Positions 606 through 18,078 of a DNA stretch of 64,000 bases are shown here, in pieces. Source of the stretch: an uncultured bacterium (GTDB lineage: Bacteria; Zixibacteria; MSB-5A5; UBA10806); assembly GCA_965541585.1 (NCBI GenBank), contig CBEUCH010000001.1:192001-256000 (forward strand), read 5' to 3'. Both the position numbers and the translations under genes were made by a program. A model generated the notes under the pieces. That model was not told where the DNA came from. It ran no database searches and saw nothing but the letters and a program-made list of their open reading frames with translations. Every line of letters begins with the position of its first letter. Positions within the stretch are counted from its first letter, which is position 1.

Positions 606-635
606 TTGACATGAGATCAAACTTCATGATAAAAT
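606..635 (+). promoter_or_regulatory. sigma-70-type promoter of the sigma-54 activator gene
   Basis: TTGACA (606-611), 18-nt spacer, extended -10 TGaTAAAAT (TAAAAT at 630-635), 12 nt before ATG 648; no SD. Confidence 0.65.
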
Positions 636-647
636 CTTGACGACAAC

Positions 648-2429
648 ATGAAAGTTGCAATCGGAAAATCGAGCAAGAGATTCGCGGAGAATCTCGAACA
701 GCTGAAGAAAGAGTCGGCCAGACAGATAAAGCAATCGTTTGCTTCTATCGTTACCATAAAAGATTTCCTCTCCGAAACGGAATCGATTGAATCATCGGAG
801 CGGTATACGAAACTCGTATCCAAGCTTGATTCTGTGGAGAGAAGGCTCTCGAGATTTGAAAGTTCATTGAACGACCGCGTTGGCAAGCTCATACGCGAAT
901 ACGACAAGCTCAAGACGGAAGTCGAGAGTCTTGCGAAAGAACGAAGTATTTATAAGGCGCTTTACGATCTTTCCATGGACATTTCGTCTCAAAGGGATAT
1001 CAGTGCAGCGCTCCCCTCGGTCGTTCAGACCACGGCGGAAATTCTTTCATGCGACAATGTGGTCCTTCAAATTATTGATGACGATGGATCGATACGGCTT
1101 CAATATGAATCATCTAAGAAAAACGCATCCGGGGAAAAGTATGAACCGTCCAGACAAATGTCCGATGCCGTTCAGGCCACCGGAGATCCTGTTTATATTC
1201 ACATGAAGGAAAAGTTATCTAAGAGTACCGTCTGCTTGCCACTGAAATCCGGCGATACGGTTGTTGGTCTTCTTCATGTAGTCAGGTTCGATCAGGCATT
1301 CAAACAATTTGATCTTGATTTATTAAGAAGCATTTCGGAGAAGATCGCTGTTACGGTGGAATCCAATCGTCTCTTCACGGATTTGGAGGAATCGCGGGAG
1401 TCGCTGATTGAAGATCTTCGGGAAAAATATCAATTCGATGAAATGGTGGGGAATTCTCCTGAAATGGCGCGGGTGCTGGCAATCGTGGCTGATGTTGCCG
1501 AAACCGAGAGCGCAGTACTTATCGAGGGAGGATCGGGAACGGGTAAAGAGCTTCTGGCCCGGGCGATTCATTATAACTCCCGGCGAAAAGACAGGCCGTT
1601 CGTGGCAATAAACTGCGCTGCTATTCCCGAAACCCTGCTGGAATCAGAACTCTTCGGCTACGAGAAAGGAGCATTCACCGGAGCCGTCGCCAGAAAACCC
1701 GGAAAATTCGAGCTCGCCGATGACGGCACCGTTTTTCTCGATGAGATAGGCGAGCTCTCGCCGATCCTGCAGGTCAAGTTACTGAGGTTTCTGCAATCGG
1801 GCGAATTCGAGCCGCTCGGGGCGACATCGGTCAAACATGCAGATGTACGAATTATATCCGCCACCAAGAGAGATCTGGGAAGGATGATCGAGGCCAGCGA
1901 GTTCCGGGATGACCTGTATTACAGAATAAATGTAATAGCCATCGGACTTCCGCCGTTGGCCAAACGGTCGGGAGATATTGAACACCTGGCGAACCATTTC
2001 CTTAAGATATACGCCGAGAAAAACAGCAAAGATATCGAGTCGATCGATGAGAATGCGATGAGTTTCCTGAAAGGCTACAATTTTCCGGGTAATATACGCG
2101 AACTGGAGAATATCATCGAACGTGCAGTTGTGCTTTGCAAGGGTAATGTTCTCTCAAGTAATTACCTGCCGGAACAGGTCAAACATTTTGGGATGCCGGC
2201 CTCGGCGGAACCCTTAAACATCAAGGAGCTGAATGACCTTAAGAAAAGACTTTGGAGAGACGTGGTAGAACCGGTGGAGAGGAGCTTCGCATTGAGATTA
2301 TTGGATGCGAGCGGCGGTAATATCTCTGCGGCGGCGAGATCAGGCGGCTTGCATCGAAAACAACTTCAGCGGATACTCAGAAGGACTAACGTAACATCAG
2401 CAGAGATTCCAACGGAGAAAGACTCGTGA
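648..2429 (+). CDS. sigma-54-dependent enhancer-binding protein (coiled-coil N-terminus, GAF, AAA+, Fis-type HTH)
   Basis: Walker [24 protein letters not shown], Walker [28 protein letters not shown]-terminal [14 protein letters not shown]-like VCLPLK..VVGLLHV. Confidence 0.95.
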
Positions 2430-2450
2430 ACAGAGGCCTTAAATGCAAAA

Positions 2451-2537
2451 GTTGCGACTCCGAAGTCGCAACAAGCTTCAGAGGGGATATTCTGGTTTTC
2501 GTAACTATCTCAAATAAATTGCGACGTGAATGTCGCA
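2451..2537. promoter_or_regulatory. tandem upstream activator sequences (two TGCGAC-N6-GTCGCA palindromes)
   Basis: GTTGCGACTccgaAGTCGCAAC (2451-2472) and TGCGACgtgaatGTCGCA (2520-2537), 67 bp apart, about 100-180 bp upstream of a -24/-12 element. Confidence 0.75.
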
Positions 2538-2634
2538 CTTTTTATCTTGTTGATAGACAACAGGATTCGTGGTCGAGGCGGTAACGTGTTGAAGTACATG
2601 CCGTTAGGAGCTCAGCCCGGTATTTTCATGAAGT

Positions 2635-2649
2635 TGGCATTGTTTTTGC
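2635..2649 (+). promoter_or_regulatory. sigma-54 (-24/-12) promoter
   Basis: TGGCATTGTTTTTGC: GG 2636-37, exactly 10 nt, GC 2648-49; 25 nt upstream of ATG 2674. Confidence 0.85.
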
Positions 2650-2673
2650 GTTAGGTGAGTTAGAGTAAACTTT

Positions 2674-3069
2674 ATGAAGGATAGTAAGTTAGCAACGAGA
2701 AATCGGAATCAATTCCCCGAGTTGAAAACACAGGTGGTAGATTCTGCTCTGGAGGTTCATAAGAATATCGGGCTTGGGTTTGGCAGGCAGGAGTATAGCA
2801 GGGCGCTGGCTCACGAACTCGGCCTCAGGGATATACCGTTCGAGCGGAAAAAGAGGGTCAAGCTTTCATATAAAGGGTCTGTTGCCGGCGAATATAACCT
2901 GGATTTTGTTATCCAGAATTCGCTGGTCGTGATGATTTCGACGGGCGAGCATTTAACGGATGCCGATGAAGCGAAGCTTAAAAGCATCTTGAAAGCGATT
3001 AAGTTGGAGTCCGGTCTAATAATAAATTTTTCCAAGGACATCTTGGAGATCGATACCATTCAACGATGA
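2674..3069 (+). CDS. GxxExxY-family (PD-(D/E)xK fold) protein with degenerate catalytic motifs
   Basis: Whole-length resemblance: EVHKNIGLGF..EY..AL..EL..RDIPFER...YKG...GEY.LDFVI...LK...L..GLIINF; the motif Glu and the VELK motif are replaced. Confidence 0.8.
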   Translation: MKDSKLATRNRNQFPELKTQVVDSALEVHKNIGLGFGRQEYSRALAHELGLRDIPFERKKRVKLSYKGSVAGEYNLDFVIQNSLVVMISTGEHLTDADEAKLKSILKAIKLESGLIINFSKDILEIDTIQR

Positions 3070-3090
3070 ATCGTGAGAGGAGGTGAAGTC

Positions 3091-3279
3091 ATGCCGGCAA
3101 AGAGAAAGAAAGCCAAGAAGAAAACGGCCAAGAAGAGAACCAAGAAAAGAACGGTGAAGAAAAAGGCCAAGAAGAGAACGGCTAAGAGGAAAACGGCTAA
3201 GAAGAAAGCTAAGAAGAAAGCCAAGAAGAAAGCCAAGAAGAAGGCCAAGAGGAAAACAGCCAAAAGGAGAAAAAGATAA
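3091..3279 (+). CDS. small extremely basic histone H1-/protamine-like protein (62 aa)
   Basis: Strong SD AGGAGGTG before ATG 3091; 42 of 62 residues K/R, no acidic residues, AKKK/TAK repeats with varied third codon positions; terminator follows. Confidence 0.8.
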   Translation: MPAKRKKAKKKTAKKRTKKRTVKKKAKKRTAKRKTAKKKAKKKAKKKAKKKAKRKTAKRRKR

Positions 3280-3319
3280 ATAGCAGCTATATTGATAGCT
3301 GATTTGTTTCGTTCTTACC

Positions 3320-3345
3320 AAGTCCGCCATTCGGCGGACTTTTTT
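3320..3345 (+). terminator. intrinsic terminator
   Basis: AAGTCCGCC-attc-GGCGGACTT followed by a T-run. Confidence 0.85.
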
Positions 3346-3385
3346 ATTGGCATTTTGCTGTAAATTTGCTATAGTTTTCGCTCTT

Positions 3386-12827: not shown

Positions 12828-13310
12828 CTATGACAGATGTCTGGAAACGAGCTTGGTCATCTCGAACATGTTGACCTTGCTCCTGCCCCCGAATACTACT
12901 CTCAGAGCGGCGTCGGCGTTGATCATTCTCCTGTTGATTCTGTCCTGAAGTTTGTTTCTCTTAATGTAGTGCCAGAGCTTCTTCGTGACCTCGGTTCGTG
13001 GGATCGGCTTGCTACCGACCACTGCTGCCAGAGCTCGACTTACCGTCATCGGCCTCATAAAAGCCGGATTCGGTTTCCTTTTGGCTTTCTTTTTCTTCTT
13101 GGCCTTTTTCTTTACGGTTTTCTTCTTGGCTTTCTTCTTAGCCTTTTTCTTGGCGGTTTTTTTCTTAGCTTTCTTTTTGGTTTTCTTCTTAGTCTTTTTC
13201 TTGGCTGTTCTTTTCTTAGCTTTTTTCTTTACGGGTTTCCTCCTGGCCGTTTTCCTTTTTGCCGTCTTCTTCTTGGCTTTCTTCTTGGCCCTTTTCTTTC
13301 TCGCAGGCAT
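12828..13310 (-). CDS. SWIB/MDM2-domain protein with ~80-aa H1-like Lys/Ala-rich N-terminal tail
   Basis: C-terminal FMRP..VS..LAAVVG..PIPRTEVTKKLWHYIK.N.LQD..NRR.INAD..L..VFG...VNMFEMTKLVSRHL is the SWIB signature; SD AAAGGAGG. Confidence 0.92.
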   Translation of the reverse strand: MPARKKRAKKKAKKKTAKRKTARRKPVKKKAKKRTAKKKTKKKTKKKAKKKTAKKKAKKKAKKKTVKKKAKKKKKAKRKPNPAFMRPMTVSRALAAVVGSKPIPRTEVTKKLWHYIKRNKLQDRINRRMINADAALRVVFGGRSKVNMFEMTKLVSRHLS

Positions 13311-13459: not shown

Positions 13460-13679
13460 CAAAAAATATCACTTTTTTTGGAGAAATGCGATTTTTTTTT
13501 GGGCCAATTTTTGAAGGTTCATCCGGGATTAATGCCGTTTTATCCTCATCTTATGACCCTCTTCCGGGCGGCTTATACGATTTATCCTGTAATATGCACC
13601 CGAGATATTCTTGTTCAGAGATTGACATTTATTTTGAGATCCTTATATTGAGGCACAATCCCCGGAAAGGAAGGTGCCT

Positions 13680-14819
13680 ATGAAGGTGAAGTACTTTACA
13701 GACATCGATAAGATATCCCAGATTCCGGAAAGCCAGAGATCGAAGCTAAGGCAGGAGGTGACGGAGCGTTTTGTATTCCGGGTAAACGATTATTATTTGT
13801 CCCTGATCGATTGGGATAATCCTGACGATCCTATTCGGAAGATCGTCATCCCCGATATGGATGAAATGGTTGCGTGGGGGACTCTCGATGCCAGCGATGA
13901 AGCCTCCAATTATGTCGTATCCGGATGTCAGCATAAGTATGCGACTACGGCTCTGATATTGGTGAACGAAGCCTGCGGGAGCTATTGCCGGTTCTGCTTC
14001 CGCAAGAGACTGTTCATTCAAGATAGCGATGAGGTTTCCAAGGACGTTTCTGCGGCTATAGAATACATCAAATCTAAACCCAATATCAGCAACGTGCTAT
14101 TAACCGGTGGAGATCCTCTGGTTTTATCTTCGAAGAAACTGGAGTCGATCCTGAGGCCCCTAAGGGCAATCAAACATGTCCAGATAATCAGAATAGGCAC
14201 CAAAATTCCGGCGTTCAATCCATTCAGAATCATTGACGATCCTGAATTACCATCGGTAATATCCCGATATAGCACCCGGCAAAAGAGAATATACTTTATG
14301 GTGCATTTCAACCATCCGCGAGAGATTACCGATAAAGCCGCACTGGCTCTCGACATATTGACCAGGTCGGGGGCGATCTTAACCAATCAGACACCTATAT
14401 TGCGAGGCATCAATCACGATCCCGAGACGCTCGCCGAGCTTATGAAGAAGCTTTCTTATATAGGTATACCGCCATACTATTTCTTCCAATGCCGCCCCAC
14501 CGCCGGCAACAAGACCTATGCGGCCCCAATAGTCGAAACCTATACTAATCTGGAACGAGCGAAATCTATGGTCAGCGGGCTTGCCAAGCGTTCCAAATAT
14601 GTCATGTCGCATGCAACCGGCAAGATCGAGATATTCGGCCTGACTGATCGGTATATCTATATGCGTTACCATCGCGCCCGCGAGGGGGAGGATGAATCTC
14701 GCATGTTGATCTGCCATAGAGACAATGACGCCTACTGGCTCGATGATCTGCGCGAGGTCGGTCAGCCGGAAGAGGAGCATGAAATCCCGCATCCCTATCG
14801 TTCTTACGGACCACAATAG
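13680..14819 (+). CDS. KamA-family radical SAM enzyme (lysine 2,3-aminomutase/EpmB-like)
   Basis: HKY, CGSYCRFCFRKR (CxxxCxxC), VLLTGGDPL, HFNHPREIT, NQTPILRGIN, PYY, PLP-lysine GKIE; SD GGAAGG; TTGACA at 13622. Confidence 0.92.
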   Translation: MKVKYFTDIDKISQIPESQRSKLRQEVTERFVFRVNDYYLSLIDWDNPDDPIRKIVIPDMDEMVAWGTLDASDEASNYVVSGCQHKYATTALILVNEACGSYCRFCFRKRLFIQDSDEVSKDVSAAIEYIKSKPNISNVLLTGGDPLVLSSKKLESILRPLRAIKHVQIIRIGTKIPAFNPFRIIDDPELPSVISRYSTRQKRIYFMVHFNHPREITDKAALALDILTRSGAILTNQTPILRGINHDPETLAELMKKLSYIGIPPYYFFQCRPTAGNKTYAAPIVETYTNLERAKSMVSGLAKRSKYVMSHATGKIEIFGLTDRYIYMRYHRAREGEDESRMLICHRDNDAYWLDDLREVGQPEEEHEIPHPYRSYGPQ

Positions 14820-17073: not shown

Positions 17074-18078
17074 ATGGCCAGAATTGCGGTAATTCAGACG
17101 GCGTTCCCGGGAGATGTCGTTCTCTCAACGCCCGTGTATGAAGCTTTAAAGGGTGAATCTCCGGGTTGCGAAACCGTCGCTATGGTCAGGCCGGAGTCGA
17201 CGGCTTTGCTGAAGAACAATCCTAATATAGATAGTGTTTTGTCATTTGACAAATACGGGGCCGACAAGGGACTGTCCGGACTGATCAGGACTGCAGCCGG
17301 ATTGAAAGGCTGTGACAGGGCAATCATTATTCAGAGGCATCTACGGTCGGCGGCCCTAGCTTACCTGGCGAGAATTCCAATACGGATTGGATATAGCAGT
17401 TCAAAAGCCCGATTTCTTTATACGGATCGGATAGAATATCGAGGCGATAAACATGAAGTACAAAGATGTCTCGATCTGATCGGGATCGATGATAATGATT
17501 ACCGGTATAAGCCGAGGATCTTCTTAGACGACGGGGCTAAGAGAAAAGCTGAAGATCTCCTCGGATCTGCGGGTGTGGGGCCGGATTTTGTGGTGGTGGC
17601 TCCGGGATCAATATGGCCCACGAAACGGTATCCATATTTTCCGGGATTGATTCATCTGATCAATGAGGAGTTCAGCCTGCCGGTGGTTCTTATCGGGGGG
17701 GCATCCGACGTTCAGTTGTCGAATACGATTGCAGAATCATGCGGGAAAATACCGCACAATCTGACGGGCCAGACGGATCTTCTGGAATCGGCGGCGATAA
17801 TCTCGAGAGCCAGGCTCGCAATTGCCAACGACTCGGCGCCCGCTCATATTGCCGTCGCCGTGGATACGCCGGTCATATCTATTTTTGGCCCGACGGTACA
17901 GGGATTTGGGTTTTCGCCCTATTCGGAAAAATCATCTGTAGTAGAAATAGGCGAACTCTACTGCCGTCCTTGCAATACTCACGGTTCCGCCCGTTGCCCG
18001 CAGAAACATTTCAGGTGTATGCTGGAATTGCAGCCGGCGAAAATAATAGAGGCCGCAAAGTTATTGCTCAGGGGATGA
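17074..18078 (+). CDS. GT9 glycosyltransferase (WaaF-like LPS heptosyltransferase)
   Basis: QTAFPGDVVLSTP, APGSIWPTKR, LTGQTDL, NDSAPAHIA...TPVISIFGPT, CRPC...CP..HFRCM. Confidence 0.88.
   Translation: MARIAVIQTAFPGDVVLSTPVYEALKGESPGCETVAMVRPESTALLKNNPNIDSVLSFDKYGADKGLSGLIRTAAGLKGCDRAIIIQRHLRSAALAYLARIPIRIGYSSSKARFLYTDRIEYRGDKHEVQRCLDLIGIDDNDYRYKPRIFLDDGAKRKAEDLLGSAGVGPDFVVVAPGSIWPTKRYPYFPGLIHLINEEFSLPVVLIGGASDVQLSNTIAESCGKIPHNLTGQTDLLESAAIISRARLAIANDSAPAHIAVAVDTPVISIFGPTVQGFGFSPYSEKSSVVEIGELYCRPCNTHGSARCPQKHFRCMLELQPAKIIEAAKLLLRG

Follow-up and report, generated by a model that had tools for sequence, protein, structure and literature searches.

Several sigma-54 activators work under a partner protein, as in the PspF-PspA, NifA-NifL and FleQ-FleN pairs, and NifL is itself a catalytically inactive enzyme homologue according to the accessible part of PMC12998190. 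The locus analysed here likewise joins a sigma-54 activator to a candidate partner. However, this partner is a 131-aa pseudo-nuclease of the PD-(D/E)XK fold, unrelated to PspA, NifL or FleN, and its predicted site is the GAF domain of the activator, unlike the site of FleN and NifL, which lie between AAA+ domains (PMC12998190, same excerpt). In E. coli, DhaR, a GAF-containing EBP-like regulator, is switched by DhaK and DhaL of its own target operon (PMC10084136, available sections); the present activator differs in retaining an intact GAFTGA and in having a dead nuclease as its candidate partner. The second product of the locus is a Lys-rich peptide. Hc2 (HctB) carries Lys-rich pentamer-type repeats in variable number, as far as the available text of PMC2848022 goes, and the peptide is like it in composition only, differing from Hc2 and AlgP by its length (13-146 aa among orthologues), its own activator and the absence of a Pfam match. 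In Chlamydia, knockdown of hctA/hctB did not stop condensation (PMC13317200, in the portion accessible), and a chlamydial precedent for a sigma-54-driven histone-like gene is ruled out, since hctB is sigma-28-driven in the source as available. No description of the module was found in the literature searched, which was partly available as excerpts and whose coverage leaves out most subscription journals.

All the elements of the original prediction were recovered in place in the window, that is, the whole 64,000-nt stretch analysed. The activator gene (648..2429, + strand, 593 aa) follows a sigma-70-type promoter match, TTGACA-18-TAAAAT (606..635, + strand, 11 of 12 consensus positions). Its product has an N-terminal helical region (residues 1 to about 100) that may form a coiled coil, a GAF domain (117-238), an AAA+ domain with GAFTGA, and a helix-turn-helix (HTH). 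The profile match to Sigma54_activat (PF00158) reached 233 bits, GAF (PF01590) was above its cut-off and the AAA lid was matched; GTGKE and DE motifs accompany GAFTGA, giving the Walker A/B and GAFTGA signature of a bacterial enhancer-binding protein. The predicted GAF-AAA+-HTH architecture is borne out, with HTH_8 a weak hit below its cut-off (17.4 bits against 22). The activator forms a distinct orthologous group in 46 of the 257 genomes of the phylum; diverged copies are additionally present in G019, G022 and G014. An orthologue was found in 44 of 48 genomes that carry the cassette, including unlinked cases.

Downstream lie two TGCGAC-N6-GTCGCA palindromes, distal (2453..2470) and proximal (2520..2537), 182 and 115 nt before the sigma-54 -24/-12 motif TGGCATTGTTTTTGC (2635..2649, + strand; GG at 2636-37, GC at 2648-49). 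With a predicted start around 2661, the leader would be some 13 nt long. The TGGCA-N6-TTGC motif is by itself not rare, with 36 sites genome-wide. The palindrome occurs as exactly two perfect copies in the 3.52-Mb genome, both at this locus, and among 146 strand-sites within 2 mismatches the locus pair was the only one to have a sigma-54 motif 60-230 nt downstream; no wider regulon of the activator was found among these sites. Of 50 genome loci, 49 carry the sigma-54 motif and the remaining one has G in place of the initial pyrimidine; among metagenome loci the motif is found in 75 of 76. The palindrome pair, at 67-71 nt spacing, was found in 45 of 54 loci and never in shuffled sequences, in a frame fixed after the data had been viewed.

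Both palindrome half-sites co-change with the activator HTH across families. The inner dinucleotide is CG in families f1, f2 and f3, where the HTH mostly reads HR[K/R]Q[L/F]QR, CA or TA in f8 and f12 (mostly HRVELQR), and TA in f18 (HRVELHR); it is symmetric in 61 of 98 palindrome sites, versus 28 on permutation. Because the spacing is kept and the half-sites co-change with the HTH, the regulatory reading is well supported: judged from sequence, the activator likely binds the paired palindromes, as its cognate sites, and drives the sigma-54 promoter, and rpoN is present in the genome together with the conserved -24/-12 element. Two IHF-like sites lie in between (2543..2555, - strand, 1 mismatch; 2582-2594, 2 mismatches). 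Scored against what we take to be the IHF consensus, such sites numbered 56 in the 54 loci versus 22 in shuffles (maximum 36). The genome contains an IHF/HU-family gene pair.

A conserved module of sigma-54 site, degenerate GxxExxY gene, Lys-rich ORF behind a strong Shine-Dalgarno site, and terminator occurs in 48 of the 257 Zixibacteria genomes; in about 205, neither activator nor cassette was detected with the queries used. In all 50 loci the order of the two genes is unchanged, and they would be transcribed together. Conservation of synteny and of the palindromes in relatives, on which the original prediction had staked its case, was therefore found, as was the dedicated sigma-54 unit that it described. 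The operon ends at an intrinsic terminator (3320..3347, + strand; stem 3320-3341, then a T run), and a script search found a hairpin of this type with a T run in 29 of 49 scored loci. A lysine-attenuator leader for the following vanZ-hisS-aspS genes was ruled out, since a sigma-70-type promoter match of their own lies past the terminator, ahead of vanZ-hisS (3347-3375), and the downstream genes vary among families.

The first gene of the operon (2674..3069, + strand) encodes the pseudo-nuclease. It belongs to the GxxExxY family (TIGR04256, 91.4 bits against a cut-off of 35; also PF13366, PDDEXK_3). The nearest solved folds are Cas4 and lambda exonuclease, and a sequence search returned no solved GxxExxY relative. 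The protein had been predicted to be devoid of catalytic residues. E38, E87, K89 and Q101 are indeed lost, but D77 is retained, so that the window protein reads R38, D77, M87, S89, which is not the set of an active PD-(D/E)XK nuclease. The ExK glutamate, E87, is missing from 49 of 49 orthologues and present in 13 of 13 canonical paralogues; the corresponding figures for presence of Q101 are 1/49 and 13/13. The orthologues form a separate single-copy clade (at least 165 bits, versus at most 102 for paralogues) under purifying selection (dN/dS 0.02-0.09 in 16 pairs), and the 13 canonical paralogues all lack a neighbouring sigma-54 site or basic peptide; these facts rule out a chance or mobile GxxExxY insertion. 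A heterodimer with an active paralogue is unlikely, as the window's genome has a single PF13366 match. The protein is not acidic (median net charge -1), and its gene has a weak ribosome-binding site.

The second gene (3091..3279, + strand) is preceded by a 9-nt Shine-Dalgarno site (3078..3086, + strand), which is matched over 9 nt in 45 of 49 loci. It encodes 62 residues, among which, as predicted, are 33 Lys and 9 Arg and no Asp or Glu. The ORF follows the pseudo-nuclease gene in all 50 loci, once with a 2-nt insertion at its start; in the scan that took in the metagenome loci, L212 and L236 were frame errors of the script and were scored as misses. Orthologues have a median length of 29 aa, many being just 15-30 aa. 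ATG, GTG and TTG start codons alternate at the same position and codons vary synonymously; like the pseudo-nuclease ORF, this one behaves as a genuine gene. AAA-AAA pairs made up 47 of 560 lysine pairs in the peptides versus 742 of 2948 in the long ORFs of G000, a comparison that mixes genomes; such avoidance fits translation of the peptides. Protamines are arginine-rich, and the label "protamine-like" is loose, as the 48 peptides contain 52% Lys and 8% Arg and resemble H1 tails. The peptide does not match Hc1/Hc2 by homology or profile and shares with them variable Lys-rich repeats, by composition. No Pfam or NCBIfam family matched it at E up to 0.1, and it has no folded DNA-binding domain. 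Similar Lys-rich genes that lack this regulator occur in other Zixibacteria. By arithmetic, neutralising a 3.5-Mb chromosome would take roughly 1.6e5 copies of the 62-mer.

A complex model placed the pseudo-nuclease on the GAF domain of the activator with a score, expressing model confidence, of 0.66, versus 0.35 for the best control. The input was activator residues 1-261 as a dimer plus the partner, with own alignments, which is outside the calibrated mode; the floor is 0.32, so the replaced-activator control, at 0.35, is already above it. Of solved pairs, 116 of 157 attain the score mark, and of mismatched pairs 2 of 215. Three runs shared at least 89% of contacts, partner pLDDT was at least 84, and unrelated partners scored 0.00. 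In the model, activator strand 181-185 would run alongside partner strand 123-127 and GAF helix 168-178 would pack against partner helix 22-34, the interface being largely beta-edge addition. On the DNA, the predicted contact region, also marked by conservation (residues 168-188, including D173 and T178), covers 1149..1211 (+ strand). Partner N31 is diagnostic (19 of 20 pseudo-nucleases versus 6 of 106 canonical single-domain relatives); K30 was rejected as such, with K/R in 80 of the 106.

We propose, giving the whole an even chance, that the activator and its operon form a feedback unit with the peptide as payload. The activator would bind the paired palindromes, with IHF looping the DNA between them and the promoter, and fire the sigma-54 promoter of the adjacent two-gene operon. 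Going by the ribosome-binding sites, output of the first gene would be low and that of the second high. The peptide, likely the payload, would coat DNA by charge, presumably as its target; by analogy a late or stress role is plausible. The pseudo-nuclease would dock on the GAF domain and damp the activator, and is probably a negative feedback regulator, the sign being taken from one observation, that the module survives loss of the pseudo-nuclease gene. GAF-docking feedback would apparently be an undescribed job for a dead nuclease.

There is perhaps one chance in five that regulation proceeds as proposed, with either feedback sign, and that the peptide targets another polyanion such as RNA or ribosomes, polyphosphate, acidic lipids or proteins. 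The absence of a folded DNA-binding domain and of family matches is compatible with this, a chromatin protein of 13-30 aa would be a short one, and H1-like AlgP localises to polyphosphate granules (PMC9239181, in the part available). Against polyphosphate, neither PPK1 nor PPK2 was found in the 98%-complete genome. Also against this reading, the same KKKTAKKK-type tail recurs in the window's genome as a fusion to a SWIB domain and to Lon, both of which associate with chromatin or DNA, and in G185 a 23-aa peptide lies beside a SWIB-type gene.

The sign of the feedback is the next point. With a co-activating pseudo-nuclease, the operon would amplify itself and switch the cell, in a bistable, all-or-none fashion, to a compacted or dormant condition. 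The predicted docking is silent on sign, activator and pseudo-nuclease gene are co-inherited in 44 of 48 genomes, and DhaL, which the target operon of DhaR encodes, activates DhaR (PMC10084136, as excerpted). However, G019, G022 and G014 have no pseudo-nuclease gene, yet the activator, the palindrome pair, the promoter and the peptide are all retained; a search for a pseudogene remnant in the three leaders gave only a 34-nt position-matched hit in L135 (E 0.2, not significant). The AAA-HTH part of their activators remains normally constrained (branches 0.24-0.36 versus 0.25-0.30 in sisters). Had the pseudo-nuclease been an obligatory co-activator, its loss would have required an activator that no longer depended on it, so gene loss counts against this reading, which we hold to be improbable, slightly more so than another target for the peptide.

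Since the activators of these three genomes had been excluded from the alignment behind the complex model, they offer an independent check of the predicted docking. Their N-terminal branches measure 0.86-1.78 versus 0.35-0.58 in sisters, a sensor region evolving 2-4 times faster, and they have lost 8 of 70 conserved N-terminal columns versus 4 of 184 in AAA-HTH. GAF residue 173 is Asp or Glu in 40 of 42 activators of gene-bearing lineages, two unlabelled partial ones included, and in 0 of 3 without the gene (R, R, Q). Across the interface, all 6 partners with Q29 are paired with S178, and 29 of 31 with H29 are paired with T178; kin are not independent, and this co-change represents at most two or three events and the gene loss one or two. 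The partner residue at the f18 locus L046 is H29.

It could be, in the less favoured case, that the complex score is a false pass due to edge-strand stickiness, the pseudo-nuclease being an independent nucleic-acid-binding accessory and the GAF speed-up a general decay of sensing. The beta-edge interface, the replaced-activator control and the use outside the calibrated mode leave room for it, and conserved columns beyond the interface were lost too (19, 28, 74, 203, 222, 231 and 246). Yet the three runs agree, unrelated partners scored nothing, mismatched pairs hardly ever reached the mark, and the sole conserved acidic interface residue loses or flips its charge exactly where the gene is missing. 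We consider this explanation doubtful. An extension of the proposed docking, more doubtful still, is a chromatin homeostat in which the dead nuclease shuttles between exposed or damaged DNA and the GAF domain and so sets peptide output. The PD-(D/E)XK fold would still recognise DNA, and naked DNA would pull the pseudo-nuclease off the GAF domain; the activator would then fire sigma-54, and the peptide would coat the DNA and free the pseudo-nuclease to turn the activator off.

The original prediction took the dead nuclease for a DNA-binding compaction partner or chaperone of the basic protein and the GAF domain for a small-ligand sensor, a reading now given the least chance of all: constant gene order with presumed co-transcription, a nuclease-like fold and the small-molecule-binding GAF domains of NifA and NorR (PMC12998190, accessible part) speak for it, but three genomes retain the peptide and lack the gene, the protein carries almost no net charge, is predicted to target the GAF domain and scores as a GAF binder, its ribosome-binding site is weak where that of the peptide is strong, and peptide length varies about tenfold while the protein itself hardly changes.

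Negative feedback by docking on the GAF domain, as we propose, would give the GxxExxY family, very large and uncharacterised, a first testable job for one of its inactive members. It would also make the pseudo-nuclease a new kind of sigma-54 activator partner, for which interface residues can be named and nature supplies a loss-of-partner control. The payload would be a sigma-54-dedicated, H1-tail-like micropeptide, down to 13-17 aa, that gene callers would miss. Though Zixibacteria are uncultured, the small parts of the module lend themselves to reconstruction in E. coli. The homeostat, if true, would add a new class to the regulators of enhancer-binding proteins and would be a control of nucleoid packing that takes its own measurements.

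Re-examination of the window bore out the position of every element of the original prediction: a gene for a 593-aa sigma-54 enhancer-binding activator (648-2429), two palindromes (2453-2470 and 2520-2537), a sigma-54 motif (2635-2649), a gene for a 131-aa degenerate GxxExxY protein, here called pseudo-nuclease (2674-3069), and a gene for a Lys-rich peptide (3091-3279). The palindrome TGCGAC-N6-GTCGCA has exactly two copies in the 3.52-Mb genome, both at the module. This genome encodes RpoN, has two HU/IHF-family genes, and gave 17 PF00158 matches in a profile search; in the homologue search, homologues with names were Zixibacteria. Upstream of window base 1 the minus strand carries what by eye is a nuo (NADH dehydrogenase) operon; it runs divergently from the activator gene, with roughly 700 nt of AT-rich sequence between the two.

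Conserved synteny and palindromes had been expected in relatives, and both were found. The cassette (promoter and both genes), with a clear pseudo-nuclease orthologue (at least 165 bits in a profile search, remaining matches at most 102), occurs in 48 of 257 phylum genomes and 8 of 19 families. Fifty loci, each drawn from a different genome, were compared: 49 have the sigma-54 motif upstream, and in the last it is off by one base. All have a Lys-rich ORF downstream, which in one locus carries a 2-nt insertion at the start, and 30 have the activator gene next to them. Eighty metagenome loci, partly from the same organisms, give the same picture (promoter 75/76, peptide 71/73, palindrome pair 60/72, adjacent activator 27/51). 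Of the 48 genomes with the cassette, 44 gave an orthologue in a profile search with the activator N-terminus; family f18 encodes its activator apart from the cassette, and the four genomes lacking a match are f18 drafts. With these profile queries, two genomes showed the activator but no cassette, and about 205 of the 257 showed neither. The module is almost certainly a real regulatory unit, conserved and apparently undescribed, no description having been found in literature surveyed at the level of listings.

In 45 of 54 loci, and in none of the shuffles, the promoter has two 18-bp palindromes upstream of it, spaced 67-71 nt apart. Their inner dinucleotide co-changes on both arms (61 of 98 sites symmetric, against a permutation mean of 28 and maximum of 43), with a frame picked after the data were viewed and related, non-independent loci among those counted. 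CG is found mostly together with the HTH helix HR[K/R]Q[L/F]QR, and TA with HRVELHR; for CA/TA the usual helix is HRVELQR. IHF-like sites, scored by match to an IHF consensus, are enriched at the loci (56 versus 22 in shuffles). By comparative criteria the enhancer is real. Since a scan of the host genome found the palindrome-plus-promoter combination only at the module, the regulon probably comprises this operon alone.

The pseudo-nuclease was modelled with a PD-(D/E)XK fold (pLDDT 82.7). All 13 canonical GxxExxY paralogues have E38, D77, E87, K89 and Q101. Among the 49 orthologues these residues are present in 29, 16, 0, 32 and 1, respectively, and dN/dS is 0.02-0.09. Tandem two-domain GxxExxY proteins are widespread (P0183-P0193 and others), with an intact first domain (E87 in 36/41) and a dead second one (2/41). 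In a quick tree the pseudo-nuclease nests among these second domains with support 0.82, a placement possibly due to long-branch attraction.

Three genomes 92-98% complete (G019, G022 and G014) gave no pseudo-nuclease match. Everything else of the module is still in place in them (activator, palindrome pair, promoter, peptide and terminator), and where the gene would lie, between promoter and peptide, there is instead a leader of 170-250 nt with no long ORF. Their activator N-terminal branches measure 0.86-1.78 versus 0.35-0.58 in sister genomes, in what amounts to one or two loss events only, and AAA-HTH branches do not differ. This faster N-terminus led us to put binding between the two proteins to a model test.

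Two copies of activator residues 1-261 with the pseudo-nuclease scored 0.66 in model confidence, against 0.35 for the best control; 116 of 157 solved pairs attained the score mark, as did 2 of 215 mismatched ones, rates that apply roughly here. Runs agreed on at least 89% of contacts, with partner pLDDT of at least 84. A sequence search found no GxxExxY relative among solved structures, which makes recall of a like complex less likely. The predicted interface joins GAF residues 168-188 to partner residues 22-34 and 122-130. Within it, position 173 of the activator carries D or E in 40 of the 42 activators from lineages that have the gene, and R, R and Q in the three gene-less genomes, whose activators were left out of the modelling alignment; conserved columns outside the interface are lost there too. 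Partner Q29 occurs with activator S178 in 6/6, and H29 with T178 in 29/31. K30 was also considered and proved not diagnostic. We regard binding of the partner to the GAF domain, as modelled, as quite likely. In the GAF domain, the predicted interface strand is followed by a loop that is strongly acidic in activators of f3, f8, f12 and f18 and could there sense the basic peptide; f1 has only a short loop at this place, and f2 a basic one.

Peptides measure 15-146 aa (median 29), with one of 13 aa in G061; they consist of 52% Lys, 17% Ala, 13% Thr and 8% Arg, and ATG, GTG and TTG interchange at one start position. A 9-nt Shine-Dalgarno match precedes the peptide gene in 45 of 49 loci, the pseudo-nuclease gene has one of at most 6 nt, and its leader in f1 and f2 is presumably about 13 nt; these features suggest high peptide and low pseudo-nuclease output. 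Two f6 loci (L024 and L025) have the Lys/Arg-rich gene in two copies, one of them situated between activator and pseudo-nuclease; in L024 this copy has its own sigma-54 motif.

Similar tails occur elsewhere. A SWIB/MDM2-domain protein (12828-13310, minus strand), also found in relatives, has an N-terminal tail, H1-like and rich in Lys, that is some 80 aa long and begins like the module peptide; divergent from its gene runs a radical SAM gene (13674-14819, plus strand), which we take to be KamA-like. A protein identified by eye as a Lon-type protease has a C-terminal Lys-rich KKKVAKKKTAKKK-type tail (host genome contig C13, near 17100-17280). In other Zixibacteria, H1-like genes encoding 23-163 aa stand alone, with neither activator nor sigma-54 site, at L265, L267 and L268 (G017, G185 and G205); in G185 the gene for a 23-aa peptide lies ahead of a SWIB-type gene whose product has a Lys-rich tail. 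Five related basic mini-proteins of 35-41 aa in the host genome (C2:48429, C10:124198, C14:49661, C15:62885, C18:5234), with three Cys, one His, a Shine-Dalgarno site ahead and relatives in L179 and L182, are possibly small zinc-binding nucleic-acid binders. Because the tail type recurs on SWIB and Lon proteins and in stand-alone versions, and no polyphosphate kinase was found in the host genome, DNA coating seems the likeliest use of the peptide, and DNA is somewhat favoured as its main target.

In the style of its repeats the peptide is similar to Hc2 (PMC2848022), and it also resembles the AlgP tail (PMC9239181), without a family match; hctB is driven by sigma-28 (PMC7482065, PMC12282069). 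As a point against peptide-driven compaction, chlamydial nucleoids still condense even upon histone knockdown (PMC13317200). The module would work like PspF-PspA, NifA-NifL and FleQ-FleN (PMC12998190), or DhaR with products of its own operon (PMC10084136), yet it belongs to none of these.

Because the module survives loss of the pseudo-nuclease gene, this protein would limit activation, and negative feedback is favoured over positive. As rival readings overlap, their confidences and that of the main picture do not sum to 1. An activator-driven operon with a peptide payload and a GAF-binding limiter has about an even chance of being the right overall picture, and every detail being right at once has less. 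Probably produced from a sigma-70-type promoter of its own, the activator would occupy both palindromes and loop to sigma-54 polymerase, yielding a two-gene message; the pseudo-nuclease would bind the GAF domain and restrain activation, while the peptide would build up and neutralise DNA.
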